Source of the DNA: an uncultured Candidatus Saccharibacteria bacterium
Lineage (GTDB): Bacteria; Patescibacteriota; Minisyncoccia; 2-02-FULL-40-12; GWA2-44-9
Assembly (NCBI GenBank): GCA_964491455.1
Contig: CAZBFM010000001.1
Location: 215,229-279,228 of the forward strand
Length of the DNA: 64,000 nt
Reading direction: 5' to 3'
The notes below the pieces were generated by a model. That model worked only from the letters and a program-made list of their open reading frames with translations, searched no databases and was not told where the DNA came from. Below are positions 1,239 through 54,127 of the stretch, piece after piece; position 1 is the first letter of the stretch; each line of letters opens with the position of its first letter. Position numbers and translations under genes: made by a program.

Positions 1239-1817
1239 CTATCGTTTTGCCCAGCGTGGACCTTTGCGAGACTTCTTAAGTCCAGGCATCTTGCGCTCGA
1301 CACGTCGTGAATCACGAGTGAGGAAGCCAGCCTTTTTGAGTTTCTTCCTAAAGTTTGCATCGAACAATTCGAGTGTTCGCGAGATACCATGTCGAACAGC
1401 ATCGGCTTGACCCGCGATACCACCACCGTTTACTAGAACCGAAACCTTGAATCGTGAAAGAGACTTCAAGCGTCTGAGTGGTGTTTCAACTCGCATCATT
1501 AAATTCTTATCCAAAAAATAATCCGAATAGTCCTTACCATTGACGGTCATAAGGGCTGCGTCTTCAGTGAGCTTATCACCCGCCTTACGCGTCATGAGTC
1601 GTACGCGCGCGATTGATCGCTTGCGGCGACCCACTGCCTCGTAATATTTCTCCTTCGCTCCATCGGCGAGTTCCTCCAATACGATTGGCGCAGCGTCTAT
1701 GTCCTCGTCTTCACGAGACACGGTATCAACGAATGAGGTTGGCATAGAGACTATCGGCTCTTCGAGCGCCTTTGTCATGGTACGTGATCCGGATTTTGAT
1801 GCAGTCTTTGTTGCCAT
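1239..1817 (-). CDS. rpsI: 30S ribosomal protein S9 with N-terminal extension
   Basis: C-terminal GGGIAGQADAVRHGISRTL...KKSRKGPRWAKR matches the S9 signature; extended acidic N-terminus. Confidence 0.9.
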   Translation of the reverse strand: MATKTASKSGSRTMTKALEEPIVSMPTSFVDTVSREDEDIDAAPIVLEELADGAKEKYYEAVGRRKRSIARVRLMTRKAGDKLTEDAALMTVNGKDYSDYFLDKNLMMRVETPLRRLKSLSRFKVSVLVNGGGIAGQADAVRHGISRTLELFDANFRKKLKKAGFLTRDSRRVERKMPGLKKSRKGPRWAKR

Positions 1818-1818
1818 A

Positions 1819-2181
1819 TTATTTGATGACGATATGATTCAATAAAATATCTCGCTGTCTGTTCTCTGGAAGCATGCCACGAACTACTTTTCGTAGAACC
1901 TGGTTCTTATCACGAGACCACGCCTCTTCAAGAGTCCTCTCTTTCATACCGCCAGGAAAGCCTGAGTGCGTGTAATACACCTTCGACGCCGCCTTCGTAC
2001 CTTTAAAAATGATTTTATCCAAATTGTGAACAACTATCTGAATGTCAGGGATAATATTCGGCGTCCAGGAAGCTGCGTCCTTTCCACGCAGAACCATAGC
2101 AATCTTCGTTGCCATGCGACCCAATGACTGATTTGTAGCGTCGATTTCAATTACTTTCATAGTATTATGCAACAAATTCAA
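1819..2181 (-). CDS. rplM: 50S ribosomal protein L13
   Basis: IEIDATNQSLGRMATKIAMVLRGK aligns to the L13 N-terminus; classic rplM-rpsI pair; alternative start at 2160. Confidence 0.9.
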   Translation of the reverse strand: MNLLHNTMKVIEIDATNQSLGRMATKIAMVLRGKDAASWTPNIIPDIQIVVHNLDKIIFKGTKAASKVYYTHSGFPGGMKERTLEEAWSRDKNQVLRKVVRGMLPENRQRDILLNHIVIK

Positions 2182-2512
2182 CTATTGCAACTGGTGAGCC
2201 GTCAGAGCTGCGTCGACCGAGCTTGATCACTCTTGTATAGCCGCCAGCGCGATCAGCAAACTTCGGAGCAATTTCCTTGGCCAGCTTTTCTGCAGCCGCA
2301 GATCCTACCGAACGAAGAAGCAATCTACGCGACGCAAGAGACCCGCGCTTAGCCTGCGTTACTGCTTTGTCGGCGATGGTCTTCAATGTCTTTGCCCTGG
2401 CAGTTGTGGTGCGAATCTTGCCATGAGATACGAGCGAAGTTAAGAGACCTTTCAGAAAGGCTTTACGCTGCTGCAGCTCTCTGCCAAATGTTCTCTTATT
2501 GCCTCGTTTCAT
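2165..2512 (-). CDS. rplQ: 50S ribosomal protein L17
   Basis: 115 aa; KGLLTSLVSHGKIRTTTARAK... is an L17 family match; directly downstream of rpoA as in the canonical alpha operon. Confidence 0.9.
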   Translation of the reverse strand: MKRGNKRTFGRELQQRKAFLKGLLTSLVSHGKIRTTTARAKTLKTIADKAVTQAKRGSLASRRLLLRSVGSAAAEKLAKEIAPKFADRAGGYTRVIKLGRRSSDGSPVAIVEFVA

Positions 2513-2552
2513 GGGATTCAGATAATATCACAGTTACTACGTTGCGTCCAGT

Positions 2553-3287
2553 TTATTCGGTTTTACTTTTCTTTATCTTCTTCGGAGCCTTAGCACTCTC
2601 TTCGGGAGCCGCAATAGCAGATACCATGCTGAAGTGATCCATGAGAATCTGCCCCGCTTGCTTCATTGCGAGCTCAGGTTGCATAGAACCATCCGTTTCC
2701 ACCTCCATTGTTATGCGATTGAAGTCGATTCTCTGACCCACGCGGACATCATCAACTGTAAAATTTACCATGCGCACCGGCGAGAAAGCAGCATCAACAG
2801 AAATAACACCAATCGGTAGTTTCTCTTTCTGTCTCGTCTCGACTGCGACATATCCTCGTCCCTTCGAAATAGTCAGCTCGATTTCAAGCTCAGTTTTCTT
2901 GTCAGTGATTGTGCAAATTCTTTGCGCAGCATTCACAAGTTCGATGTCGGACGAGAGTTGAATGTCAGCGCCCGTCACCTCGTGCTCGCCTTTCACTTTG
3001 AGGGTGACAACCACCGGCTCCTCAGAGAAGCTGCGAAAACGGAGACGCTTCAAGTTTAGAAGTACTTCAATGACGTCCTCTTGCACTCCCGCGATCGCTC
3101 CAAACTCATGTTCAACGCCATGGATCTTGAGTGACGTAATGGCGGCACCTTCGAGCGAAGAGAGTAATACTCTACGAAGAGGGTTTGCAATAGTCGCTCC
3201 ATACCCTGGCATAAGAGGACCGATTTCGAAAATCGCTTTGTTGCCCTCTTTCTTTACTACTTTTACTTCCTCTGGGAGCTGGATCAT
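2553..3287 (-). CDS. rpoA: DNA-directed RNA polymerase alpha subunit, N-terminal domain only (no alpha-CTD)
   Basis: 244 aa; strong alpha-NTD similarity (GPLMPGYGATIANPLRRVLLSSLEGAAITSLKI); ends in Lys-rich tail APKKIKKSKTE; rplQ follows immediately, so there is no room for a CTD. Confidence 0.85.
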   Translation of the reverse strand: MIQLPEEVKVVKKEGNKAIFEIGPLMPGYGATIANPLRRVLLSSLEGAAITSLKIHGVEHEFGAIAGVQEDVIEVLLNLKRLRFRSFSEEPVVVTLKVKGEHEVTGADIQLSSDIELVNAAQRICTITDKKTELEIELTISKGRGYVAVETRQKEKLPIGVISVDAAFSPVRMVNFTVDDVRVGQRIDFNRITMEVETDGSMQPELAMKQAGQILMDHFSMVSAIAAPEESAKAPKKIKKSKTE

Positions 3288-3379
3288 TACAGTTAATCGC
3301 GAACGTAGCGGTATTATACGAGGTTAGGAGGAGGGGTGGTCGGTGGCTCGTAGGATACGCGGCGTAAGCAATGGGTTAA

Positions 3380-4024
3380 TTAGCGTGAATAGTATTCAAT
3401 AATTGCCTGCAAATCGACGGTCTGTATTCCGCTCTCCTCTACCGTCGGCAACGACTTAACAGTGGCAGTGAGCTTCTTTTTATCAACCTCAAGCCAGGAA
3501 GGCGCGGTTGTCGCTTCCATCCAGCGAGGCATCAATGTTGCAAAGTACGGAGATGCTTTTGAAATTTCGCGCACACCTATTACATCACCGACCTTAACCA
3601 CAATTGATGGAGTCTTTGCTCGTTTTCCATTGAGAGTGACATGACCGTGGCCAACAATCTGTCTCGCCTGATCTCGTGACTGTGCCAAGCCCATACGAAA
3701 AGCGACGTTGTCGAGGCGTGTCTCAAGGCTGCGAATTACAGCAATATAAGGAGATTCACGCTTCGCATTTTCAAGAGAACGTTTTACATATGTCTTGAAA
3801 GGCTTTTCGAGAAGCCGGTAGACATTACGTACCTTCTGCTTTGAACGTAGCTGCGTTCCAAATTCAGAAAGCTTTCGAGGTCTGCGTCCCGATCCGTGCT
3901 GACCAGGTGGAAATGGTCGCCGCACTATCGCTGACTTTGGTGAGTTTGAACGCTCACCCTTTAAGGAGAGGTTTTCTCCAATACGTCGCTCAATTTTTCC
4001 TCGTGGTCCAGTATATCTTGCCAT
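3380..4024 (-). CDS. rpsD: 30S ribosomal protein S4
   Basis: MARYTGPRGKIERRIGENLSLKGERS N-terminus, S4 family. Confidence 0.9.
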   Translation of the reverse strand: MARYTGPRGKIERRIGENLSLKGERSNSPKSAIVRRPFPPGQHGSGRRPRKLSEFGTQLRSKQKVRNVYRLLEKPFKTYVKRSLENAKRESPYIAVIRSLETRLDNVAFRMGLAQSRDQARQIVGHGHVTLNGKRAKTPSIVVKVGDVIGVREISKASPYFATLMPRWMEATTAPSWLEVDKKKLTATVKSLPTVEESGIQTVDLQAIIEYYSR

Positions 4025-4042
4025 AGTAGATGAGTGTAGCTA

Positions 4043-4534
4043 TTAGATGCGTCGTGGCTTCGGAGATTTAACCCCATTGTGAGGCACTGGCGTCTTGTCC
4101 ATAATTGAAGTTACATTGAGACCGGTTCCAGCAATACCGCGTACTGCTGCTTCACGGGCTGGACCAACGCCTTTTACCACGATACGTACATTCATAAGGC
4201 CAAACCGCTTTGCCTTCTCGACCGCATCTTTTGCTACAAGATTGGCTGCGTAGGGAGTTGACTTCTTGGAGCCCTTAAAGCCCAAAAGTCCAGCGCTAGA
4301 AAATGTGAGAACATTTCCTCCGAGATCACTAATCGCAATAAGTGTGTTGTTGTATGAAATGTTGATATTTACGACACCGTTCAGTACGAGCTTCTTAGAG
4401 CTCTTCTTTGATGAGATGGCCTCACCCGCGGAAACTTCGGCAACACTCGCTGATGCGACGTCTTTTACTGGTGAAACCTCAGGCTTTGCCTTTGTTGAAG
4501 TAACCGTCTTTTTTTTCTTTAGATCGTCAGTCAT
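4043..4534 (-). CDS. rpsK: 30S ribosomal protein S11 (Lys/Ser-rich N-terminal extension)
   Basis: Core GFKGSKKSTPYAA...VKGVGPAREAAVRGI...TPVPHNG matches S11; start chosen at MTDDLKKKK, 4 nt after the rpsM stop. Confidence 0.85.
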   Translation of the reverse strand: MTDDLKKKKTVTSTKAKPEVSPVKDVASASVAEVSAGEAISSKKSSKKLVLNGVVNINISYNNTLIAISDLGGNVLTFSSAGLLGFKGSKKSTPYAANLVAKDAVEKAKRFGLMNVRIVVKGVGPAREAAVRGIAGTGLNVTSIMDKTPVPHNGVKSPKPRRI

Positions 4535-4538
4535 AGTA

Positions 4539-4925
4539 TCAAGTCTTTTCAGATGATTTTGCTCTTCCAGAGCCCATAGTCTTTCGAACGTTTCCACGAG
4601 TTGTTCTGCTGTTCGTCTTAGAACGCCCCTTTACTGGAAGTCGCCGAGAAAGGCGCGAGCCCTTCCATGTGCCGGTCTCCTTCTGGTGCTTCTGATTTTG
4701 GCCGACTTCTTTACGCAAATCACCCTCAATTTTATAGGCGCGTTCAATGATTTTCTGAATTTTACCGAGCTCCTCACCAGTTAAGTCCGATGCCTTCTTA
4801 TCAAAATCAATCCCGGCGCTCTTTAGAATAATAGCAGCAGTTGTCGGGCCGATACCGTACAAATACGGCAAAGAAAACAGTATCTTTTTGTTATCCGGGA
4901 TTGTAACACCAAAAATACGTGGCAT
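4539..4925 (-). CDS. rpsM: 30S ribosomal protein S13
   Basis: MPRIFGVTIPDNKKI...YGIGPTTA aligns to the S13 N-terminus; start at internal Met of the listed ORF. Confidence 0.85.
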   Translation of the reverse strand: MPRIFGVTIPDNKKILFSLPYLYGIGPTTAAIILKSAGIDFDKKASDLTGEELGKIQKIIERAYKIEGDLRKEVGQNQKHQKETGTWKGSRLSRRLPVKGRSKTNSRTTRGNVRKTMGSGRAKSSEKT

Positions 4926-4941
4926 AAATAGTATAATCGAA

Positions 4942-5055
4942 TTAGCCCTGACGCTGCTTGTGCTTGGCAATTTTGCAAACACAATACAAACGCTTCTTGC
5001 GTCGTACTAGTTTGCAGTTGTTGCACATTGGTTTTACAGATGCTTGAACCTTCAT
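4942..5055 (-). CDS. rpmJ: 50S ribosomal protein L36
   Basis: Hand-translated 37-aa [40 protein letters not shown] with the C-x2-C...C...H zinc ribbon of L36; sits between infA and rpsM as expected. Confidence 0.8.
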
Positions 5056-5097
5056 TATTGATAAAATGATAACCTTCCCGTCCCGGTCAGTACTGCG

Positions 5098-5310
5098 CTA
5101 ATTGCGGTACACGATCCTACCACGAGAGCCGTCAGGAGTCACCTCCATGGAGACTTTATCCCCTACCATAACTTTGATATGCCGCAGTCTCATCCTGCCC
5201 GCTAAATAAGCAAGCACAACAGTGCCATCTTCTAGCTGGACACGGAATGTAGTGTCAGGGAGTGCCTCAATGACGCTACCGGTGACTTTTTGCTTTTTCT
5301 GGTCGATCAA
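5098..5310 (-). CDS. infA: Translation initiation factor IF-1
   Basis: 70 aa; S1-like OB fold sequence GSVIEALPDTTFRVQLEDGTVVLAYLAGRMR. Confidence 0.9.
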   Translation of the reverse strand: MIDQKKQKVTGSVIEALPDTTFRVQLEDGTVVLAYLAGRMRLRHIKVMVGDKVSMEVTPDGSRGRIVYRN

Positions 5311-7346: not shown

Positions 7347-7413
7347 CGAGTTTGCTGTGAGTTCAAACCTAAGTATACCCCCGAATCACGCCTGCGTACA
7401 TCACTCATGTGGA

Positions 7414-10410
7414 CTAGTGGTGCAACTGCAAGGCGCGCAGTTCGCAATAGCTACACTCCGAATCATTGCATCGTTGATTCCAAAATGAAAGAGCTTGAAT
7501 TTCCTTGGCGACTCTGACGATGTCCGCTGCAAGCACAGTAGCCATTTCAGGAGTCACCGCAAATCGCTCGCGATGCCACTTCCCCTTAGCGTCCGGTTCA
7601 ACAAAATCAATCACTCCTTCGCTCATGCGATACTTCCCTCCCTGGAAGCGATCGAGTAGCAGTTTGTAGAATATGAGTTGGCGCATGTAGTTGCCATCTC
7701 CATCTTTCACTGCACCGATAATCTGATTTCTTGTTTTTGGCTTGCCGGTTTTATAATCTACAACAATTACACTTCCTGATGCGTCAATCAGCTCCACTTT
7801 GTCTATCTTTCCATTAATGAGCACACCCTCCGTAAGTTCAACGGCAGGGACACGAAGTTGATTCAGCACGGTGGGTTTCCATGTAGCACTATACGTATCA
7901 TAGTAGCCTTCCAGCGCTGCGCGCCCCCTCGAAAGTGCAACGTCGAGCTGTGGCTTTTGAAGCGGCTGATGCCGAATAAAGTCTTCGAAAAGCGCTACAA
8001 GACTTTCGCGAGTGCCAGTCATGCCACTCGCGAAGCGGTTAAAGAACTCTTCAAGAGCTCGATCGACGGCATTACCATACATGAGGGCGAACGCGGGAGC
8101 TTCAGGTATCCGAAGTAAATTGGTGTAAAAATATTTCCAGGGACACTTTAAATAGTTATTGAGCGCCGTCACAGACAAGCCGTGTCGCGCAAATAACTCA
8201 TTCAGAAACTCCTTGTCGGCTCCCAGCGGTATGGTCGGGGGTGACGCCTGATACCGTATTGCCCCCTCCTCAAGCCAACGACCCTCAATCTCTGCGGTAT
8301 CAATGTATGCGAGAAGTCCTGGATTAATATCGGCTATGTATTGTGTTGGGAGCGACTCTGATCCCGCACTGTCGCGAAGGCTATACGAAAGCACTATCTG
8401 TTTTCTCGCACGGGTGAGGGCGACATAAAAGATATTTCGCTCTTCGTCGTCATTGATAGAACTTGGCGGGGTGTCGAAGCGTTGTTTTTGGAAAAGTGCC
8501 ACGGGAAGACGAAGAAGCTCTCGACGCTGTCGCGAACCCCAATGACCATCGATAGCGTCTATAATATAGACATAATCGAACTCCATGCCCTTGCTCTTAT
8601 GAGCGGTCATGACGCGAACACGACCCGGGAGGGATGTGCCAGTATGCGACGAGAGGGCAATACCGTGTTCGCGTAGGAAATCAATGTGCTCCGCAAATTG
8701 CCGAAGTGTGATAGTGCGGTCGCGCTGTATTCTTGAACGGAGCAAATCATACAGATCGTGAAGCCTCGCGAGCGTGTCTGGTGCTCGAGCACTCGAAATG
8801 ATCCCTCCCAGTAATCCGGTTTCGCGAATAATTCGCTCGAGAGTCTGCGCCGCCTCTGGTTGTTCGGCGTCTCGCGACCATGACGCAAAATAGGCTGATA
8901 GCTTTGTCAGTGTTTCGATTCCTTCGATGCCCGCGTCACGAAGTAACATGCTTGAGCGAATAACATCGTATGGATTGCGCCCTTGCCGACAAAACTCGGT
9001 GAGTTTGTAGATGTCGAGTGGGTCCACGCCAAGCGTCGGAGCGTGAAGCGCAACCAGGAGGGGTCCAGGAGAGCCAAAATTTCGAATTGCATCGATGATG
9101 CGAATGAGCTGGTGAAGATATGGATCTGCCAACAGATCCTGTTGCGTAGAGAGCGTATAAGGAACTGAAAGCTTCTGCAAGAATTCACTCATTGCGACGG
9201 CATCCGAATTATCTCGAGTCAGTATGGCGATTGACTCAGGTTTCACGCCTGCTTGCAGTCGAGATCGAATATGTTCGGCTATGCTCCAATATTCGACATC
9301 TGGTCCACTCAATGCAAGCACGTGAACCAAGGCATTATCATGACCAGCCTGCGCCGTAAGAGCTCCGTCTTCACCTGGGCGAATCCCCTCAGCAGCATCC
9401 AAAATAAGCTGGCTTGAGCGATAGTTATCTCGTAGCGCAATAAGCTTCACATCTGGATACAAGGATTTAAAATAGAGGAAGTTCTCAAGTGATGCTCCCT
9501 GGAAGCGATAAATTGCTTGCTTTGCATCTCCCACAACGAACAGATTCGGACGTTGCCAAAATGAAGCAAGAAGTTCGATGATGCGATTTTGCGCATTATT
9601 CGTATCCTGATGCTCATCGACGAGTAAATACTGATGCTTCTCTTGCAGAATCAAGCGAAGCTCTTCATTCGTATCGAGTGCGCGGGCAACTTCCATTATC
9701 ATATCATTGAAGTCATACAGGCGCTGCACTCGAAGCATCTTCTGATATGCCTCGTAGAGAATCGCGAGTTCTCGTAGCTTCAAAATCTGCTTGAGCTGCT
9801 CTTGATATGCGCCCTTCATCTTTCCTTTGTGAGCTCCTTTTTCGTGATACAAATCAACCGCGTTTACGATCGCGCTCTCCTCGCTGGCAGCCACCGCTAC
9901 CACACGATCGCACCCCACTCCTTCCCGCTTGAGTCTATTTATGGAGCTGATAACTGCTTTGAGATACAAATCTGGAGCATTGACAGGTCGTAAGAGCTCA
10001 ATACCTGCAGTCGTATTAATCAGTTCCTGTAGTAGTACCGCCTGATCAGACTCAGTAATCGATGCCGCGCCTGCAAGCACGCTCAGCGCTTCGGGGTACT
10101 CTTGAATAACTGAATTACAATACGCGTGGAACGTCGTCACTGAAACGCGATACGCGTCAGTGCCTATTATAGCGGCCAAACGACCTCTCATCTCAGCCAC
10201 CCCCGACTCCGTAAACGTCAATGCCAAAATCGCTTCAGGGGGCGTATCCGTTCTAAGTAGAATCGCAGCAATGCGAAGTGTGAGGATTTTTGTTTTGCCC
10301 GTTCCAGGTCCCGCAATTACCATGACTGGACCATCGATAACATCGACAGCCTCGCGTTGGCGATCATTTAATTGAGCGTAGAGTGCGTCAAATGCATCAG
10401 TTCTCGACAT
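7414..10410 (-). CDS. UvrD/PcrA-family helicase fused to a C-terminal PD-(D/E)XK nuclease with Cys cluster (AddA/AddB-like single-chain helicase-nuclease)
   Basis: 998 aa; Walker A AGPGTGKTK, UvrD motifs; C-terminus has DYKTGKP (E/D-x-K) and CNDSECSYCELRAL cysteines. Confidence 0.8.
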   Translation of the reverse strand: MSRTDAFDALYAQLNDRQREAVDVIDGPVMVIAGPGTGKTKILTLRIAAILLRTDTPPEAILALTFTESGVAEMRGRLAAIIGTDAYRVSVTTFHAYCNSVIQEYPEALSVLAGAASITESDQAVLLQELINTTAGIELLRPVNAPDLYLKAVISSINRLKREGVGCDRVVAVAASEESAIVNAVDLYHEKGAHKGKMKGAYQEQLKQILKLRELAILYEAYQKMLRVQRLYDFNDMIMEVARALDTNEELRLILQEKHQYLLVDEHQDTNNAQNRIIELLASFWQRPNLFVVGDAKQAIYRFQGASLENFLYFKSLYPDVKLIALRDNYRSSQLILDAAEGIRPGEDGALTAQAGHDNALVHVLALSGPDVEYWSIAEHIRSRLQAGVKPESIAILTRDNSDAVAMSEFLQKLSVPYTLSTQQDLLADPYLHQLIRIIDAIRNFGSPGPLLVALHAPTLGVDPLDIYKLTEFCRQGRNPYDVIRSSMLLRDAGIEGIETLTKLSAYFASWSRDAEQPEAAQTLERIIRETGLLGGIISSARAPDTLARLHDLYDLLRSRIQRDRTITLRQFAEHIDFLREHGIALSSHTGTSLPGRVRVMTAHKSKGMEFDYVYIIDAIDGHWGSRQRRELLRLPVALFQKQRFDTPPSSINDDEERNIFYVALTRARKQIVLSYSLRDSAGSESLPTQYIADINPGLLAYIDTAEIEGRWLEEGAIRYQASPPTIPLGADKEFLNELFARHGLSVTALNNYLKCPWKYFYTNLLRIPEAPAFALMYGNAVDRALEEFFNRFASGMTGTRESLVALFEDFIRHQPLQKPQLDVALSRGRAALEGYYDTYSATWKPTVLNQLRVPAVELTEGVLINGKIDKVELIDASGSVIVVDYKTGKPKTRNQIIGAVKDGDGNYMRQLIFYKLLLDRFQGGKYRMSEGVIDFVEPDAKGKWHRERFAVTPEMATVLAADIVRVAKEIQALSFWNQRCNDSECSYCELRALQLHH

Positions 10411-46754: not shown

Positions 46755-47039
46755 CTACTCCTTCTGCTGACCCCACTGCCATCGTGGACGCTCACCCTTC
46801 GCAAAACAAAGACCGATCAAGAGAAATGTCGCAACCACGATACGCGCAATGAATGCACCCGTTGAGACCGTATCGCCCGCCGAAAACGAGCGCGCCTCAA
46901 GTGTAATTGCAACGATGTAGAGCGCCACCGCAAGCCATCCCTGCCACGTGGCGGGTGTCCACCCCCATCCGTAGAGCTTCCGCTTAAACCAAAGACGTTG
47001 TGGGTTATCACGGAGATGCGCGATGTATTCTTTGATCAT
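46755..47039 (-). CDS. Hypothetical small membrane protein
   Basis: 94 aa; two hydrophobic helices, Trp-rich. Confidence 0.35.
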   Translation of the reverse strand: MIKEYIAHLRDNPQRLWFKRKLYGWGWTPATWQGWLAVALYIVAITLEARSFSAGDTVSTGAFIARIVVATFLLIGLCFAKGERPRWQWGQQKE

Positions 47040-47051
47040 ACGCGTATTATC

Positions 47052-47864
47052 TCACTCTTGTTCCACTTGTCCACGTGCATGTGTATAGGCGCACCAGTCA
47101 CACGATGGTCCCGACGCAGGCATCTCATCACCCTCGAGGCACTCCTTGATCTGTCCCAATACTCCATCCACCCACCCGTCGCTTCCCGTGTACGCAATGA
47201 GATGCACATCAAAATCAATCCGTTTATCAAATGCCTGTCGATCCATCTTGCCGGTGCAGTACACAAAGTAGCCCGTATCCGATACGGTGAGACCATTGCG
47301 ACGCAGGAGCCACTGATAGATCTCCATCTGTCGTTTGTATCCATCGTGCCATGCATTATCGAGCGAGGTCACGGGCTGCTCCTTGGCGGTTGCCTTGTAG
47401 TCGACCACGATGTACTCCTGCTTGCCGTTGATCCACAAATCATCGATGGCGCCCGACACCAGCAGTCCCGTGGGCTCATGACGATGCGTGATACCGCCAA
47501 AATTGCGCCGCCACTCATCAAGTTCATCGTGCGCCATGGGACGGGAATCGATGCCATACTCAATCTGGAGCGGGTGCTGCTCGCCACGCACGCGATAGCC
47601 ATCAAACTCTTGTTTCAGGAGATGATCGACAGCGCTATTGATGTTGAATGGAAATCCTGGCACACGCTTGATCCCAAGCTTGTTGTCGATATAGAAACAG
47701 CGCGCGCACGACATGAACAGATCAATTTTCGATCGACTCAGCTTCCAATTGGCTCCCCCGTAGTTCCACGCACTTCCCCGCTTTGCAGAATAGAATTCAG
47801 ACATAGATATCTTCATCGTACCCGAATCAGCATCAATCGCAACTCCCCACATCTGAATCGACAA
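47052..47864 (-). CDS. Stand-alone PD-(D/E)XK RecB-family nuclease with Cys cluster (Cas4-like fold)
   Basis: 270 aa; motif II IDDLW, motif III VDYK, QhxxY (QMEIYQWLL), N-terminal CARC and C-terminal CDWC cysteines. Confidence 0.7.
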   Translation of the reverse strand: MSIQMWGVAIDADSGTMKISMSEFYSAKRGSAWNYGGANWKLSRSKIDLFMSCARCFYIDNKLGIKRVPGFPFNINSAVDHLLKQEFDGYRVRGEQHPLQIEYGIDSRPMAHDELDEWRRNFGGITHRHEPTGLLVSGAIDDLWINGKQEYIVVDYKATAKEQPVTSLDNAWHDGYKRQMEIYQWLLRRNGLTVSDTGYFVYCTGKMDRQAFDKRIDFDVHLIAYTGSDGWVDGVLGQIKECLEGDEMPASGPSCDWCAYTHARGQVEQE

Positions 47865-47908
47865 AAGACCTCTTCTGCCGTATAGTAATCACGTCTTTGC
47901 GGTTCTAT

Positions 47909-47979
47909 TGCGGGGTCGTCTAATGGTAGGACAGCGGCCTTTGAAGCCGTTTATTCTGGTTCGAGTCCAGACCCCGCAG
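47909..47979 (+). tRNA. tRNA-Gln (TTG)
   Basis: Acceptor TGCGGGG/CCCCGCA, anticodon stem GCGGC/GCCGT, loop CTTTGAA, T arm TCTGG-TTCGAGT-CCAGA; 3-bp D stem GTC/GAC as in tRNA-Pro/Gly. Confidence 0.75.
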
Positions 47980-48044
47980 CAATCGTGGATTTTGTGAGTA
48001 GAGAATTTGTTATAAAATGGCAGGATATTCAGGTTGGCTTGTTA

Positions 48045-48073
48045 TTTGACATATATGCGTGTTTTTGGTATAA
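48045..48073 (+). promoter_or_regulatory. Perfect sigma70 consensus promoter (TTGACA-N17-TATAAT)
   Basis: Read directly in an AT-rich tract about 65 nt after tRNA-Gln; drives the GC-rich ORF through a roughly 135-nt leader. Confidence 0.45.
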
Positions 48074-48213
48074 TGTATCACTAGTTCATTCCCATTGTTT
48101 CAGGCATTGAGGCGAACGTTTTTGACACCACTACTGGCTTCAAGAATGTTCGTCTCAATCCGAGATGCACCGCGCCCGAGCGTATCGGGTAGCAACGTAC
48201 GTGGAGGTATGCG

Positions 48214-48978
48214 ATGTCCAAGGACATTGTGAGCCCCAGAACGCTGTCAGTGCACAAAGAGCACGAGCTCCTGGGAAAATTGGAAGCCGCTGGTCTGGGC
48301 AATGCCGAGGCACAACTCGTCATCGACTCCAAGAGCAACGAGCTTGCCCGTAAGCTGGTGACGTTCATCCGTACGGGCGGCTACGAGCCGACGGTGAGCC
48401 AGAAGACGGCCCGTGCCATCCTGGGCCCCAACTACATCGGGGTCGACAAGTCCATCGAGTATCTGAAGGTCACGCCGTCCAAGGCCGACCTCAAGGTTCT
48501 CGAGGAAGTCCCGTTCAGCGACGCCGTGCTCGAGGCGTGCAAGGACACCCACGTCCTGGTCGCCGTGCTCCCGATGTCCGTGATGGGCCTCTGGGAGCGC
48601 ACCAAGCATCTGTTCTACGCCAAGGACGACGCCTGGTATCGCAACCAGGCGTTCGCCAAGGACAAGGGACAGGCGGGCTGGCATCTCGTCCGCAAGGACA
48701 TCGTGCCGAACACGACGTCCAAGACGTGGCAGGAACAGCAAGCCCTGCTCGGCAAGGACGACGAGACCCCGACGGCCCGCGTGCTCATCTACACGGTCAT
48801 CCTGACCTTCCTGGCGACGGGTCTGAAGCTCCTGCCGAACATCTACGCGAGGGTCAGCGACGTGGCCTCGGACGGTGACCGTGTCTACGTCGGCGACTTC
48901 GATGACAACGGTCTCCACGTCCGCTACTACTGGGATGACTACCGCAACGACAGCATCGGCGTCTCGTCCTCTTCATAG
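48214..48978 (+). CDS. Hypothetical protein encoded by a compositionally foreign (high-GC, GC3-saturated) gene
   Basis: 254 aa; GGAGG RBS; from about codon 25 onward nearly every third position is G/C, about 60-65% GC versus about 50% in flanks; no family recognised. Confidence 0.6.
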   Translation: MSKDIVSPRTLSVHKEHELLGKLEAAGLGNAEAQLVIDSKSNELARKLVTFIRTGGYEPTVSQKTARAILGPNYIGVDKSIEYLKVTPSKADLKVLEEVPFSDAVLEACKDTHVLVAVLPMSVMGLWERTKHLFYAKDDAWYRNQAFAKDKGQAGWHLVRKDIVPNTTSKTWQEQQALLGKDDETPTARVLIYTVILTFLATGLKLLPNIYARVSDVASDGDRVYVGDFDDNGLHVRYYWDDYRNDSIGVSSSS

Positions 48979-49048
48979 ACGAGTCGGGCAACTTCGACTT
49001 CTCACCTTCGGCTACGGCACTGTGCGTGCAGAGAAAGAGAGTATAGCC

Positions 49049-49411
49049 ATGGATAGTGAGCCCAACGAATCTGGCACTGACGCGCGACGAATCAAAATCG
49101 ATTTACGCGACATGACGCCTGACGAAGTGGTAGCGATTCTCCAAGAGAACGGATTTCAAAACGTCTCGCACGCTCTCGAGCCAGGGTGGGGCGAGGTTTC
49201 AATCTTCAACCTGCAACCAACACAAGCAGACAGAGACCAAGTCGTTCGACGCATTGCGATTCAAGAAGTCGAAGCCCCGCTACTGACCGTCGTTGTTCAT
49301 GATGGCTCAGAGCACACGCTCAAGCCAGGCCATGATCTCCGTTACTTCGAGCAACATGGCGATCGTCAGGCTGGCTGGGGCTGGGCGCGAACATCGTATC
49401 TCTACAAGTAA
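49049..49411 (+). CDS. Hypothetical protein (second gene of the tRNA-Gln-proximal pair)
   Basis: 121 aa from internal ATG with weak purine-rich RBS; normal composition; terminator immediately downstream. Confidence 0.4.
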   Translation: MDSEPNESGTDARRIKIDLRDMTPDEVVAILQENGFQNVSHALEPGWGEVSIFNLQPTQADRDQVVRRIAIQEVEAPLLTVVVHDGSEHTLKPGHDLRYFEQHGDRQAGWGWARTSYLYK

Positions 49412-49433
49412 GCGGTCACCGACAGCGCACTCT

Positions 49434-49461
49434 CCGCACCATCACCGGTGCGGATTTTTTT
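49434..49461 (+). terminator. Intrinsic terminator
   Basis: CCGCACC-ATCACC-GGTGCGG then ATTTTTTT. Confidence 0.55.
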
Positions 49462-49518
49462 ATGGATACAAGGTGTTGTATCCGGATGTTGACATTATCG
49501 CGCATTTAGACGTATAAT
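49462..49518 (+). promoter_or_regulatory. Palindrome (GGATACAA-N4-TTGTATCC) abutting a TTGACA-N18-TATAAT promoter
   Basis: Perfect 8-bp inverted repeat ends 7 nt before the -35 hexamer; promoter about 30 nt upstream of the 49547 ORF, which has an AAAGGAG RBS. Confidence 0.4.
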
Positions 49519-49546
49519 ATGGATTGCCATTTCAAAAGGAGCTTTC

Positions 49547-49831
49547 ATGGACGTCGCGCAGGCGGATAAGCAATACAATTTTCAGACTGAGTTTCTGAAG
49601 ATTCGAAGCGAATGCGTACGGAAATACGCCGACTGGCTCAAGCGCATCGTAGCCGAGGGCATCCACTTCGACATTGTTGTGGTGTCGGAGTTTGAAGCTA
49701 CCTCAGCCAAGCGCTACCTCGATGACATCGGCGTGGGCGCCAGTAATCCTCACGTGACCGTTGCCTTCTGGCACGAAGCAGAATTGAACAGACACAGTCG
49801 GTTGCGATTCCCTTTCAATCTACTCCGATAG
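49547..49831 (+). CDS. Hypothetical small protein
   Basis: 94 aa; good RBS; contains one H-x-T-x-like element (PHVTVAFW) but no confident family. Confidence 0.45.
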   Translation: MDVAQADKQYNFQTEFLKIRSECVRKYADWLKRIVAEGIHFDIVVVSEFEATSAKRYLDDIGVGASNPHVTVAFWHEAELNRHSRLRFPFNLLR

Positions 49832-49846
49832 CCAGCCACCCCTCAT

Positions 49847-49875
49847 CCCTCACGTGCACCGTGAGGGATTTTTTT
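49847..49875 (+). terminator. Intrinsic terminator
   Basis: CCCTCACG-TGCAC-CGTGAGGG then ATTTTTTT. Confidence 0.55.
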
Positions 49876-49936
49876 CAACACACCACAGACCATTTGAGTA
49901 GATGAATTCAACTTCACTATTTGGTACTATAGCTCC

Positions 49937-50320
49937 ATGCCTGATACACCCAAGCGACAGTCGGTTCGCGATTACATTGCATCCTGCCCCAAGGATGTAC
50001 AGCCTCTGCTGAATGCAATGAGAGCTGCCATTAAAAAGGCTGCACCTTCTGCGAGGGAGCGCATGGATTATTTTGATATGCCCGGCTATTCGCTCGATCA
50101 TGGCTACAACTATGACGGTATGTTTGCCTGGTTTAGTTATAAAAAACCATGTGTTCGGTTGCACGTTCGGCCGCCAGCGATCCAAGATTTCGCCGACGAC
50201 GTGGCAGGGTATCGAACGACCAAGTCGATTATTAGCTTTTCAATGACCGAGAAATTACCACTAGGTTTGATACGCAAACTTATTACACGAAGCATCGCAC
50301 TCATGAAGAGCTCCTCATAG
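49937..50320 (+). CDS. DUF1801 (YdhG-like) domain protein
   Basis: 127 aa; VRDYIASCPKDVQPLLNAMRAAIKKAAP...FSY pattern of the DUF1801 family. Confidence 0.6.
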   Translation: MPDTPKRQSVRDYIASCPKDVQPLLNAMRAAIKKAAPSARERMDYFDMPGYSLDHGYNYDGMFAWFSYKKPCVRLHVRPPAIQDFADDVAGYRTTKSIISFSMTEKLPLGLIRKLITRSIALMKSSS

Positions 50321-50375
50321 ATAGTGCCTCCTGTATACTGCAATTAGCTAACGTAGTAACTATAACCACATCACC

Positions 50376-50804
50376 ATGATCGCACTGAGCCCTTGGATCA
50401 ACTTTAATGGAAATACCGAAGAAGCCTTTACCTTTTATAAATCTGTTTTTGGCGGCGACTTTACGAGTATCATTCGACTCAAAGATCTTGCAAGCCCAGA
50501 ATTTCCCGTTGCTCAAGAGGACGCCGAAAAAATCATGCAAATTATTCTCCCCATCTCCGGCGCCAATACGCTCATCGGCAATGATGTGCCTTCATTCATG
50601 GGAGTTGTGAACGAGCAGGAGAACCGCAGTAAGATCCACGTCACCGCAGACAACACGCAAGAAGCCGACAGGCTGTTCGAGGGTCTCTCACATGGAGGGC
50701 AGGTAGAAGCACCTATGAGCGACAGTGCGTGGGGAACCTATTTCGGCATGTTTCGAGATCGATATGGCATCGAATGGGTTATTGAATCCAAGAAAAGCGC
50801 GTAA
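50376..50804 (+). CDS. VOC (glyoxalase/PhnB-like) family protein
   Basis: 142 aa; INFNGNTEEAFTFYKSVFGG and YFGMFRDRYGIEWVI characteristic of PhnB-like VOC proteins. Confidence 0.7.
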   Translation: MIALSPWINFNGNTEEAFTFYKSVFGGDFTSIIRLKDLASPEFPVAQEDAEKIMQIILPISGANTLIGNDVPSFMGVVNEQENRSKIHVTADNTQEADRLFEGLSHGGQVEAPMSDSAWGTYFGMFRDRYGIEWVIESKKSA

Positions 50805-50846
50805 CCCTCACGCTCGTAGGTTTAAGCATTCTTCTGTTGGTAAGTA

Positions 50847-50875
50847 TTGACATATACGATCTTCTGTGCTATAAT
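50847..50875 (+). promoter_or_regulatory. Perfect sigma70 consensus promoter (TTGACA-N17-TATAAT)
   Basis: Read directly; 30 nt upstream of AGGAGAG RBS and the ATG at 50907. Confidence 0.45.
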
Positions 50876-50906
50876 AGTACTGCACATTTATCAACTCAGG
50901 AGAGAG

Positions 50907-51311
50907 ATGTTTAACCCAAAAGGCATCCTCATGGTTGAGCCTTCGAAGTGGACTTCAGCAGCTCCGCACATCGATTCGGCCACCAGGATGATGACAGCCG
51001 CATGGCGACGACGACGGGTGTCCGAATCGGCATGTCGCGGAACACATCTGTGTCGCTGCGGCGTTGCTAGCGACAACCGGATCCACTTCGTCGGGAGCGC
51101 CGACATAAAGACGAATTCTCTATGCATCCACTATCTTGCCTTCCATCGGGATGAGATTCCGCAGGAAGAGCTCGACAAGGTGTATGCACTTGGATTCGAA
51201 GAGGAGGCTCCAACCATGGAGGAGCTCCGCCTGCCAATCGCACTCCTTCCGGAAACTACCTCGCTGTTGATCACGATGTCGCACTCCGCAGCGATCCCGC
51301 GCAACACCTAG
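50907..51311 (+). CDS. Hypothetical protein
   Basis: 134 aa from the ATG after the AGGAGAG RBS (listed ORF starts further upstream at 50847); locally elevated GC; no family. Confidence 0.4.
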   Translation: MFNPKGILMVEPSKWTSAAPHIDSATRMMTAAWRRRRVSESACRGTHLCRCGVASDNRIHFVGSADIKTNSLCIHYLAFHRDEIPQEELDKVYALGFEEEAPTMEELRLPIALLPETTSLLITMSHSAAIPRNT

Positions 51312-51328
51312 TTCCTCGCCCCGCACCG

Positions 51329-51355
51329 CGCCCACCTCTCACGAGGTGGGCTTTT
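51329..51355 (+). terminator. Intrinsic terminator
   Basis: GCCCACCTC-TCAC-GAGGTGGGC then TTTTT. Confidence 0.6.
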
Positions 51356-51422
51356 TGCGCATCTCACGCCTCCTTCTATACATGCATGGAATCCTGTAGA
51401 ATATCCTCAATCAATTCAGCGC

Positions 51423-52565
51423 ATGTATCACAAGATCGCACTCATTTCAGTCATTCTCTTTGCAGCTAGCTTCAGCGCCACGCATGCTGAGACTGACGTC
51501 ATTATCACGCTTGGCAAAATCGTGCAAATTGCCTCGCAACGCATAGAAGTGGTCGAGGGAACAACGCTCAGTTCAACAATTCAAGAACTGGACGTTCGTA
51601 TCCTTGAAGGCGCATGGAAAGGTACGACGGTGCGAGTGCAAAACGATATCTCCCCCTTAGAAGTCGGCGACCGCGTCAACATCGCACTATCTACCGATGA
51701 ATCAGGCCAGCCACTCATCACTGGAATTGGCTTTGCGGGAGTGTATCGACTTCCAGCTCTTGGCATGCTACTTGGCCTCTTTATTGTGCTCGTAGTCCTC
51801 TTCGGGGGTATGCCTGGCCTTCGCGGTCTCGCGAGTCTCGCCGGAAGCCTTGTGCTCATCATCTTCGTTCTTCTGCCAGGAATTCTCAATAGCGTATCCG
51901 CGCTCGGCTTGAGCATTGCCGTCTCGGCAGTCATCATCATTTTTGGATCATTTATTACGCACGGATTCAATCGCACCACGCTCGCTGCTGTTGTGGGAAT
52001 GATCGTAACCGTTATCCTCGTTGGCCTATTCGCCTCCTATGCAGTTTCTATGGCACGGCTCACCGGTTTCGAAAGTGAAGAAGTCTTATACCTCACATCC
52101 AGTGCCTCAGGCGCAGCCATCGATATCGCGGGATTACTGCTCGGTGGTATTTTGATCGGTCTTCTCGGTATTCTGTATGATATCGCCATCAGCCAGGCGA
52201 TATCCGTTGAAGAACTCCGACGAGCTTCACCGTCGATGTCGACGCGAGAGCTCCTCACCCGAGCAAATCGCATCGGTCGAGAGCACATTGGAGCACTCGT
52301 CAATACGCTGGCAATTGCGTATGCAGGCTCGTCGCTGCCGCTTCTCCTTCTTTTCTATTCACAAAACGCAAGCATCGCTGAGACACTTAATTCAGAGGTC
52401 ATCGCGACTGAAATTGTGCGCATTCTTGTGGCAAGTATTGGCCTGGTCATCGCATCACCTATCACAACCCTACTAGCTGTCGCTATACTCAAGAATCATA
52501 CCTTTGATAGTTCCTCGCGCGACAAGAGTGAGTACTCGTCGCATCACGTTCATGAAACCAATTGA
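51423..52565 (+). CDS. YibE/F-family polytopic membrane protein
   Basis: 380 aa; signal/anchor, soluble N-domain, then about 7 TM helices in YibE/F arrangement. Confidence 0.65.
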   Translation: MYHKIALISVILFAASFSATHAETDVIITLGKIVQIASQRIEVVEGTTLSSTIQELDVRILEGAWKGTTVRVQNDISPLEVGDRVNIALSTDESGQPLITGIGFAGVYRLPALGMLLGLFIVLVVLFGGMPGLRGLASLAGSLVLIIFVLLPGILNSVSALGLSIAVSAVIIIFGSFITHGFNRTTLAAVVGMIVTVILVGLFASYAVSMARLTGFESEEVLYLTSSASGAAIDIAGLLLGGILIGLLGILYDIAISQAISVEELRRASPSMSTRELLTRANRIGREHIGALVNTLAIAYAGSSLPLLLLFYSQNASIAETLNSEVIATEIVRILVASIGLVIASPITTLLAVAILKNHTFDSSSRDKSEYSSHHVHETN

Positions 52566-52899
52566 CGCCTATATCGCTCGCTACCCAGCAAACGTCAAAC
52601 GATACCTGAAGCAGCTGCGCGCTCTCATCACGGCAACTGCTCCAGCCGCGGAAGAGGCAATGCGCTATGGTATTCCGACGTTTCGCTATATGAAGAAGAA
52701 TCTTGTCCACTTCGGTGGCTTCAAAGATCATGTGAGCTTTTTCCCAGGCGCGGCTGGCATTTCTGCATTTGTTAGTGAGCTCACACGATTTAAAGTGTCC
52801 AAGGGGACCATTCAATTCTCACTCGATGCAAAGCTGCCCACTGCGCTCATTCGTCGCATCGTTCGTTTCCGAATACAGCAATGCGAGACAAAGAAATGA
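52552..52899 (+). CDS. DUF1801 (YdhG-like) domain protein, second paralog
   Basis: 115 aa from MKPIDAYIARYPANVKRYLKQLRALI...; overlaps the end of the YibE/F gene by 14 nt. Confidence 0.6.
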   Translation: MKPIDAYIARYPANVKRYLKQLRALITATAPAAEEAMRYGIPTFRYMKKNLVHFGGFKDHVSFFPGAAGISAFVSELTRFKVSKGTIQFSLDAKLPTALIRRIVRFRIQQCETKK

Positions 52900-53576
52900 A
52901 GGTTTTACTCTACGGAAAAGAGACCGAAGTGATTGTATCTGCCGTGCAAGCGGCGGGTTTTCATATCGTTGAGCGCGATCCAGATTTCGTTATTAGCTAT
53001 GGTGGCGATGGTACGCTGATTCACTCCGAATATAGCCATCCCGGCATTCCAAAGATTGTGCTGAAAAATAGTCAGATCTGCAAGCGTTGCTCACATCTTC
53101 CCAACGCCGAAGTTCTCCGTCGCGTAGCATCGGGAGCATACACTATCGAGAAACTCATCAAACTCGAGGTCGAAGTGGCCGGTCGTACCCTGACGGCAAT
53201 CAACGACATCACCGTACACAATCAGGATCCTCGTCATGCGATTCGGTATTCACTTGCCGTCAACGATCGCCCCATTGGACAAACGATCATTGGCGATGGC
53301 GTAGTGGTTGCGACACCATTTGGATCAACGGCATACTATCGAAGCATCACCGATAGCTACTTCGAGGTTGGCATTGGTCTGGCGTTCAACAACAGCACCG
53401 AACAATCCGATCACATCGTACTCCGTGATGACAGCACCATTACAGTTATTCTCTCGCGCGGTACTGCTGTTATCTATGCAGATAATCAAGACGACGCGCT
53501 TACGGTTGGTCCTGATGAACGGATTGTAATTCGGAAAGCAGCAACGCAGTGCTTGCTCGTCGTACCAAAGCAATAA
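52896..53576 (+). CDS. nadK: NAD kinase
   Basis: GGDGT motif (VISYGGDGTLIH), NE/D and DGxxxxTPxGSTAY motifs (VVVATPFGSTAYYRS); start at MKVLLYG. Confidence 0.8.
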   Translation: MKVLLYGKETEVIVSAVQAAGFHIVERDPDFVISYGGDGTLIHSEYSHPGIPKIVLKNSQICKRCSHLPNAEVLRRVASGAYTIEKLIKLEVEVAGRTLTAINDITVHNQDPRHAIRYSLAVNDRPIGQTIIGDGVVVATPFGSTAYYRSITDSYFEVGIGLAFNNSTEQSDHIVLRDDSTITVILSRGTAVIYADNQDDALTVGPDERIVIRKAATQCLLVVPKQ

Positions 53577-53593
53577 TACTAATATACGTAATC

Positions 53594-54127
53594 ATGAACT
53601 CAAGCGAATTACTCACTATTCTAAAGTCTCGATTTGAAAATAACATGCATCGCCATCGCGGTGTTGCGTGGGGCGCCATAACCAAGCTCATTGAAGCAAA
53701 TCCTGATCTTGCACGCTCACTGCAGGCAATGGAGTCAACTGGAGGAGAGCCTGATGTGATCGCCATTGACTCCAATCTCGTTTACATAGATTGCTCTCAG
53801 GAAAGCCCCAAGGGTCGCCGCAGCCTGTGCTACGATCAAAATGCACGGACATCCCGAAAAGCCAACGCTCCTGCCAGCAGCGCGATGGAGGCTGCGCATG
53901 CGATGGGCATCACGTTGGCCACCGAAGCACAGTATCGAGCTCTGCAGGCCTACGACGCCGTTGATACCACTACCTCTAGCTGGCTACTGACACCACCGAA
54001 CATTCGCGAACGTGGCGGCGCTCTATTTGGCGACCGTCGATACGATGCTGTCTTTGTCTACCACAATGGCGTTCAATCGTACTACGCCGCTCGAGGGTTT
54101 CGTGGAGCGATACTACTGTCACGGTGA
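53594..54127 (+). CDS. DUF4256 domain protein
   Basis: 177 aa from MNSSELLTILKSRFE...; family-level resemblance only. Confidence 0.55.
   Translation: MNSSELLTILKSRFENNMHRHRGVAWGAITKLIEANPDLARSLQAMESTGGEPDVIAIDSNLVYIDCSQESPKGRRSLCYDQNARTSRKANAPASSAMEAAHAMGITLATEAQYRALQAYDAVDTTTSSWLLTPPNIRERGGALFGDRRYDAVFVYHNGVQSYYAARGFRGAILLSR

Follow-up and report, generated by a model that had tools for sequence, protein, structure and literature searches.

Why does one gene differ so strongly from all its neighbors at its third codon positions? This question is raised by an open reading frame (ORF) for 254 aa at 48214..48978 (+) in a stretch of 64,000 nt from an uncultured Candidatus Saccharibacteria bacterium (contig CAZBFM010000001.1, positions 215,229 to 279,228), which is called the window throughout. 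Its G+C fraction at third codon positions (GC3) is 0.87, compared to 0.41-0.68 in the other 68 window ORFs of at least 80 aa, and it lies about six standard deviations above the mean. A preliminary description, made from the letters of the window alone, had interpreted the gene as a recent import from a high-GC donor, e.g., an actinobacterium. The present analysis leads to a different answer. The ORF belongs to a family of proteins that are targets of diversity-generating retroelements (DGRs) in bacteria of the Candidate Phyla Radiation (CPR). It is likely, in our judgment, that the window gene is itself such a target, which was orphaned, is probably frozen, and was recently exchanged, and that its high GC3 results from selection at the level of codons.

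A family of DGR target proteins

The closest relative with genomic context is P0002 on locus L001, the protein of which is 89% identical to the window protein. In L001 the target gene adjoins genes for a reverse transcriptase (RT; Pfam RVT_1) and for bAvd, and a 116-nt inverted repeat has one copy between the genes (7412..7527) and the other at the very 3'-end of the target. The two copies, the template repeat (TR) and the variable region (VR), have 21 mismatches, and 20 of these are located at TR adenines (A to G 11, A to T 5, A to C 4). The near-confinement of the TR/VR mismatches to adenines, together with the RT and bAvd genes, identifies the family as DGR variable proteins. In an intact CPR locus the RT and Avd would copy the TR into cDNA and thereby misread template adenines, the cDNA would replace the VR of about 110 nt at the 3'-end of the target, and this replacement would rewrite about 12 AAC-derived codons in a probable ligand-binding domain of the C-type-lectin-like kind.

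A genome scan with one genome per GTDB species yielded 94 family loci, most of them on metagenome-assembled genomes labeled as CPR and none of them actinobacterial. In addition, 364 homologs of the target protein with a length of about 255 aa were found; those with a source name are 53-60% identical to the query and are labeled as Patescibacteria, Paceibacterota, Giovannonibacteria, and similar groups. Locus statistics (GC3, TR/VR pairs, and RT proximity) were calculated for 82 family loci, and the host GC3 was taken from 10-kb flanks. In 26 of the 82 loci there is a TR/VR pair in which TR adenines account for at least 80% of the mismatches, and about half of the 82 loci encode, within a few kb, a DGR-type RT that has 35-37% identity to the annotated RTs of phage DGRs. 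The usual order is target, TR, and RT on one strand. Variable proteins of CPR DGRs were reportedly first surveyed by Paul et al. in 2017; the family described here consists of "hypothetical" CPR proteins that are now assigned to DGR targets.

Several family loci are labeled "uncultured Gammaproteobacteria," and one contig carries an Acidobacteriota label. The latter, locus L013 (contig DASTCT010000312.1, 181.7 kb), is assigned to Candidatus Angelobacter (Acidobacteriota) and contains two family members with leaders. Either these contigs are mis-binned or generically labeled CPR contigs, or the family extends beyond the CPR. Another observation concerns the surroundings of the L001 cassette, which is bordered by a gene pair for a DNA methylase and an NgoFVII-type restriction enzyme; just upstream of this pair, at L001 3667-3790, a LOOT RNA is located (Rfam RF03000, 70.5 bits).

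The statement of the preliminary description that the protein matches no recognized family holds for Pfam and PDB, but the gene belongs to the family of CPR DGR targets. A Pfam search of the protein and its neighbors revealed no domain in the target protein, and both single-sequence and profile searches against PDB found no relative. The N-terminal domain alone retrieved only three fragments and no new architectures. An AlphaFold2 model has an overall pLDDT (predicted local distance difference test) of 78.6, with values below 50 for residues 217-254, and a Foldseek search yielded no match. The protein consists of a helical N-terminal domain (about residues 1-110), which is extremely conserved in the family, and a C-terminal domain that probably has a fold of the C-type-lectin (CLec)/formylglycine-generating-enzyme (FGE) type.

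The window locus is composed of the following features:

47909..47980 (+), tRNA-Gln(UUG), found with ARAGORN and with the Rfam tRNA model (63.8 bits)
48005..49009 (+), block common to the window and L001 in blastn, comprising promoter, leader, target gene, and a 38-nt DUF3800 fragment
48046..48074 (+), sigma-70-type promoter TTGACA-17-TATAAT with TG extension, 12/12 in a consensus scan, within the block conserved in L001
48095..48213 (+), conserved structured 5'-leader (covariance model R1, RNAalifold, minimum free energy (MFE) fold)
48214..48978 (+), target gene of the CPR DGR variable-protein family
48863..48972 (+), VR, 86% identical to the L001 TR
48972..49009 (+), deletion junction and 38-nt DUF3800 remnant (reading IDESGNFDF), 100% identical to L001 8936..8973
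49049..49411 (+), ORF for 120 aa of ordinary composition (ORF list; gene call on the identical contig L086)
49433..49454 (+), intrinsic-terminator-like hairpin with T run (terminator scan), the first terminator 3' of the target gene

Between the VR of the window gene and the L001 TR there are 15 differences; 11 of them concern TR adenines, and the other four represent third-position drift. Template AAC codons appear in the window as GAC, TAC, CAC, CGC, and AGC. Judged from this pattern, the VR represents the footprint of past adenine-directed diversification. It is nearer to the L001 TR than to the L001 VR (78% identity), and the two VRs thus have the pattern that would be expected of two independent diversification products of similar templates.

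Orphan state and exchange of the window copy

The window copy has lost the surroundings of a functional cassette. Searches of the 64-kb window with the RT, Avd, and TR of L001 (tblastn and blastn) detected none of them, the best E-value for RT or Avd being 0.045, and a direct repeat of the VR was not found there either; for inverted repeats, both strands were searched by blastn. Furthermore, in blastn alignments with L001 a stretch of 176 nt (L001 8760..8935) is missing from the window at 48972. In L001 this stretch contains the last bases of the TR/VR homology, which presumably represent the initiation of mutagenic homing (IMH) site, the codons of the C-terminal Arg-Lys together with the stop codon, two hairpins (one of them the terminator), as seen in a DNA fold of L001 8740..8935, and the start of the DUF3800 gene (Pfam; L001 8909..9628). 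Consequently, the Arg-Lys that is near-invariant at the C-terminus of the family is missing in the window protein, and the similarity to the DUF3800 gene stops after the piece of 38 nt. The absence of RT, Avd, and TR together with the deletion of 176 nt characterizes the window copy as an orphaned deletion derivative that is truncated at its 3'-end. Mutagenic homing requires both an intact 3'-end of the VR and a hairpin downstream of it. Their loss would have abolished homing, and, as far as the sequence tells, the copy can probably no longer be re-diversified.

The arrangement is not a quirk of the assembly, because L086, a metagenome contig obtained independently (SRR12404947), matches 47925..53729 with 100% identity. 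The preliminary description had already noted an ORF of normal composition followed by a terminator downstream of the gene, and both were recovered. Since the target's own terminator has been deleted, the target gene and the ORF for 120 aa, for which a Pfam search gave no match above threshold, are probably co-transcribed.

The block 48005..49009 has a history of its own. The similarity to L001 begins 25 nt past the 3'-end of the tRNA-Gln gene, and 48005..48972 corresponds to L001 7791..8759 with a DNA identity of 91.3% in blastn, the leader being 89% and the gene body 95% identical. The proportion of synonymous differences (pS) in the target body is 0.125, compared to a saturation value of 0.566 +/- 0.044 under the codon usage of the target. 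In contrast, the syntenic downstream genes are saturated, with pS values of 0.82 for NAD kinase (58% aa identity) and 0.77 for YibE_F (36% aa identity). Therefore, the block was shared far more recently than its surroundings, and the comparison argues strongly for its recent exchange between CPR lineages. The block of about 1 kb with promoter, leader, and gene was either exchanged with, or received from, a CPR lineage that holds the full cassette. The proposal of a recent acquisition in the preliminary description is thus upheld for the block, but the partner was another CPR lineage.

The role of the tRNA gene was judged differently. The start codon of the target gene is indeed only 233 nt downstream of tRNA-Gln, as had been estimated (about 235 nt), and an integration at the tRNA had been envisaged. 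However, a tRNA-derived direct repeat of at least 11 nt was not found in the 16 kb downstream, a search that did not extend to an integrase. The tRNA is a neighbor of the conserved unit of the target gene and not a part of it.

A further observation was made for the two cassettes of L001 (5968-8854) and L007 (7961-10857). Their targets are 90% identical at the aa level and have a pS of 0.37, compared to 68% and 0.85 for their RTs. This contrast could be due to a strong synonymous constraint on the target or to an exchange of the target apart from the RT.

A family-wide GC3 excess confined to the ORF, and its possible causes

The composition of the window gene had been described correctly in its main points. 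It is a GC3-saturated outlier, and its GC content of 0.62 is within the range of 60-65% that had been estimated by eye; GC1 and GC2 are 0.60 and 0.38, respectively. An abrupt switch from the local codon usage to the GC-rich regime at about codon 25 had also been proposed. The high GC3 was verified, but the change is a gradual rise, with a GC3 of 0.72 over codons 1-50 and of 0.88-1.00 in the following blocks of 25 codons. Similarly, the leader region (48005..48213) has a lower GC content than the gene, but with 44% it is not below 40%.

The GC3 excess is a trait of the whole family. In 95% of the 82 loci the flanking ORFs have, on average, a lower GC3 than the target, the mean excess of the target being +0.25, and in 87% the target is the ORF with the highest GC3 of the locus. 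Examples for target versus flanks are 0.38 versus 0.26, 0.63 versus 0.27, and 0.84 versus 0.57. Expressed in log-odds, the targets are offset by 1.16 +/- 0.53; the slope against host GC3, which ranges from 0.21 to 0.76, is 0.79. The mean GC3 is 0.70-0.72 for targets, 0.38 for RTs, 0.44 and thus host-like for Avd (37 loci), and 0.41-0.42 for flanking ORFs. The mean GC content is 0.43 in the 150-nt leader, 0.425 in the 100 nt downstream, and 0.44 in the locus. Within the target gene the excess is uniform and has no gradient from the VR, and paralogous targets with unrelated N-termini are GC3-enriched as well. As a single observation, the Avd gene of L012 (8176-8529, minus strand) is a GC3 outlier, with 0.79 compared to a locus median of 0.54.

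At the level of bases, both A (0.13 versus 0.26) and T (0.18 versus 0.30) are rarer at third positions of targets than of flanking genes. At the level of codons, NNC is used in place of NNT (about 0.70 versus 0.35), and ATA, CTA, TTA, AGA, AGG, CGA, CGG, GGA, and GGG are avoided, while CGT and GGT are retained and GCG and GGG are not enriched. An excess that is confined to the ORF, uniform, and codon-selective speaks for selection on codons and against both biased gene conversion and a mutation bias of the region. With moderate confidence we ascribe the codon regime to selection for strong and robust expression.

This interpretation is in keeping with the elements that precede the gene, namely, a promoter and a Shine-Dalgarno sequence that both match the consensus, and a conserved structured leader. 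The perfect promoter had already been recognized in the preliminary description. The leader contains a long hairpin (48106..48159) with the base UGAGGCGAAC...GUUCGUCUCA and a stem of about 22 bp. The base is itself conserved throughout the family as UGAGACGAG...CUCGUCUCA, and the apical stem is variable in sequence and always paired. A small hairpin (48175..48189) is followed by GGAGGUAUGCGAUG, and the Shine-Dalgarno sequence GGAGG is located at 48203..48207. A GAGAC repeat just 3' of the long hairpin could pair alternatively with GUCUC.

The MFE fold of the leader has a z-score of -3.8, and RNAalifold revealed compensatory changes in 17 of 24 pairs. In an alignment of 46 distinct leader sequences 95.9% of the cells are paired, versus 81% in shuffles and 35-45% in slid controls, and double, i.e., compensatory, changes occur in 20 of the 24 pairs, so that the leader covaries. 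The covariance model R1 has exactly one match in the window (48095..48216, 100 bits), and in most loci it matches directly upstream of the target, paralogous targets included. The motif was found upstream of targets in about 60 related loci, e.g., L023 3530-3657 and L026 9873-10000. A search of 47800..49600 with Rfam 15 retrieved only the tRNA, all other matches having E-values of at least 0.4, and the leaders of seven related loci also gave no Rfam match. At L045 9312-9448 (minus strand) a cobalamin riboswitch was matched (36.2 bits; gathering score 31.5); it is located a few hundred nt upstream of the target leader and on the opposite strand.

Second targets are present in five loci, with leader motifs at L013 10922-11056, L022 7523-7686, L025 10945-11069, L044 8780-8948, and L028 7000-7127 (minus strand). 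Their N-terminal domains are different, the C-terminal parts are 33-53% identical, and both the leader motif and the GC3 excess recur in them. Therefore, leader, CLec/VR part, and codon regime travel together, while the N-terminal domain is swapped.

Several other explanations for the high GC3 have to be weighed against codon selection. One is GC-biased gene conversion or a regional mutation bias, in which the target would be a hot spot of recombination, by exchange or by cDNA homing, and the repair of heteroduplexes would turn AT into GC. Recombining bacterial genes tend toward higher GC3. The recent exchange of the block, the depletion of both A and T at third positions, and the lower pS of the target than of the RT in one cassette (L001 versus L007, 0.37 versus 0.85) would be in agreement with this mechanism. 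However, the excess ends at the limits of the ORF, and neither the leader, which is inside the exchanged block, nor the 3'-flank or the adjoining Avd gene is enriched. Also, there is no gradient away from the VR, GC1 and GC2 of the target are ordinary, and the shifts are not uniformly toward G or C, as GGG, CGG, GCG, and AGG are not enriched, whereas CGT is. We thus regard biased conversion as improbable.

An equally small chance is given to an avoidance of adenines that is linked to the DGR itself. If RT and Avd sometimes copied the mRNA of the target, selection would purge dispensable adenines on both strands of the whole ORF. In line with this, no base is depleted more than A at third positions, the effect does not extend beyond the ORF and is restricted to DGR targets including paralogs, and the offset is somewhat larger when an RT is nearby. 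It is hard to reconcile with this idea that T is depleted nearly as much and that the biggest shift is from NNT to NNC. Codons ending in A are shunned even in four-fold boxes, in which a change from A to any base is silent, and copies without a nearby RT still have a large offset. In addition, the targets of three phage DGRs, i.e., Mtd of BPP-1 and the targets of BalMu-1 and VP58.5, have no GC3 excess over their own genomes, although nothing can be learned from BPP-1, the GC3 of which has already reached the ceiling. A GC3 excess as a universal property of DGR targets was rejected on the same grounds.

The import from a high-GC donor, i.e., from an actinobacterium that might be the host of an episymbiont, with in-frame fusion behind a resident promoter and a GC3 that has not yet been ameliorated, has become very improbable. 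It would account for a strong outlier next to a tRNA, for a block recently exchanged relative to its flanks, and for codons that resemble those of high-GC bacteria (GCC, GGC, GTC, CTC/CTG, CCG, ACG, and CGC). However, none of the 364 proteins and 94 loci is actinobacterial, and homologs with identities of 50-60% keep the offset in their own genomes over the whole range of host GC3 values. Synonymous sites of members that are so divergent have long been at equilibrium, so that the offset cannot be due to a donor signature that still awaits amelioration. The RT and Avd genes of the same cassettes are host-like and the leader of the same block has a GC content of 44%, neither of which would be expected of a donor signature. 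Promoter, leader, and first codons are all part of the conserved family unit, in contrast to the postulated fusion, and an att-like repeat was not found among tRNA repeats of at least 11 nt in the 16 kb downstream. Related genomes contain orthologs of equal composition, an outcome that the preliminary description had itself named as contrary to an import.

Least probable of all is a constraint on the synonymous sites by a second gene that overlaps the target, either antisense or in a different frame: long shadow ORFs do exist on both strands, as had been stated, including an antisense ORF for 223 aa (48247..48918) that covers almost the whole target, and the synonymous divergence of the target is low, but the antisense frame is open solely where GC3 is high, and it was rejected as a gene because in low-GC members TTA, CTA, and TCA break it and leave at most 40-80 open codons.

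Some findings weigh against parts of our own interpretation. The genes for ribosomal proteins, IF1, and RpoA of the window have a GC3 of 0.41-0.55 and no preference for NNC. If translational selection is the cause, it therefore acts on the target gene and not on the classical set of highly expressed genes, and the ordinary dialect of highly expressed genes was rejected as an explanation. Furthermore, the offset is larger in loci with an RT nearby (1.33 versus 0.98, p about 0.02, with an incompletely deduplicated set), which hints at a link to DGR activity that is not predicted by pure selection for expression. With respect to the history of the copy, a DGR could be located elsewhere in the genome, beyond the 64-kb window, and the recent exchange is based on two comparable flanking genes (NAD kinase and YibE).

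What do the results mean for the view of such genes? A compositional outlier beside a tRNA is in this case neither a sign of a cross-phylum transfer nor a clue to a host, and detectors of horizontal gene transfer that are based on composition will systematically mis-flag CPR DGR target genes. Two properties of the family were not found described, namely, the excess of GC3 and C-ending codons (about 1.2 log-odds units) across genomes of 30-60% GC, which ends at the ORF limits, and the covarying hairpin in the 5'-untranslated region, which is present even in paralogous targets with different N-terminal domains. A mention of the ORF-confined GC3 excess and the leader hairpin was not found in the DGR papers PMC8144416 and PMC5758913, and literature searches on GC content or expression of CPR DGR targets brought up nothing specific. 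If codon regime and leader reflect selection, they offer a handle on how and how much CPR cells express hypervariable proteins. These two are the parts of the analysis with the most value for follow-up studies.

A further-reaching idea, which we put forward tentatively and with considerable doubt, is that CPR DGR targets represent an undescribed, self-contained expression module that comprises a consensus promoter, a covarying leader, and a selected, gene-specific codon regime and is tied to hypermutation. Codon regime and leader might then buffer the expression of ever-changing variants, or shield the ORF from the adenine-mutagenic RT. If this were true, they would not simply reflect a high abundance of the protein.

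Other genes of the window complete the picture. The left neighbor of tRNA-Gln is a gene for a PD-(D/E)XK nuclease (47052-47864, minus strand; Pfam PF12705, E = 2e-11), for which an exact-match look-up found no record; a plus-strand ORF for 295 aa (46998-47885) is its shadow. On the other side, a second promoter with a 12/12 match (TTGACA-18-TATAAT, 49489-49518) precedes an ORF for 94 aa (49547..49831) without a family match, which is followed by a strong terminator (49845..49869). The genes for S9, L13, L17, RpoA, S4, S11, S13, and IF1, named from their translations, form a cluster at 1239-5310 (minus strand), the GC3 of which does not exceed the mean of the window; S9 and S11 seem to be extended at the N-terminus by long stretches.

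Comparison with known systems

The codon usage of the target resembles that of codon-biased, highly expressed bacterial genes. In both, NNC is preferred, rare codons for Arg, Gly, Ile, and Leu are avoided, the synonymous divergence is reduced, and promoter and Shine-Dalgarno sequence match the consensus. The difference is that the ribosomal-protein genes of the same genome lack the bias.

As a protein, the target is comparable to TvpA of Treponema denticola (PDB 2Y3C) and to other DGR targets with an FGE/CLec fold, such as Mtd. The diversified residues are likewise in the last approximately 40 residues, here of a probable CLec/FGE-like domain, and they are likewise encoded by AAC-based codons. 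However, the window family has no detectable sequence similarity to targets of this type and a different, helical N-terminal domain.

The best correspondence is with the CPR-restricted DGR clade 2, the targets of which have no recognizable transmembrane or conserved domain (Roux et al., 2021; PMC8144416). The window family fits this clade. It also lacks a signal peptide, a transmembrane segment, and a Pfam domain, and it has the VR at the C-terminus, adenine-specific differences between TR and VR, nearby genes for RT and Avd in relatives, and a cellular instead of a phage context. The window copy differs from these targets by the absence of the cassette and of the 3'-end required for homing.

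In this respect it resembles the remote or orphan targets and the decayed loci that have been described in surveys of DGRs (Wu et al., 2018; PMC5758913), along with evidence that components of DGRs move laterally. These share with the window a target with a VR footprint that has neither an RT nor a TR adjoining it. In the window, the disconnection of one DGR target copy from its retroelement could be mapped to the base, i.e., to a deletion of 176 nt that removed the end of the TR/VR homology together with the terminator.

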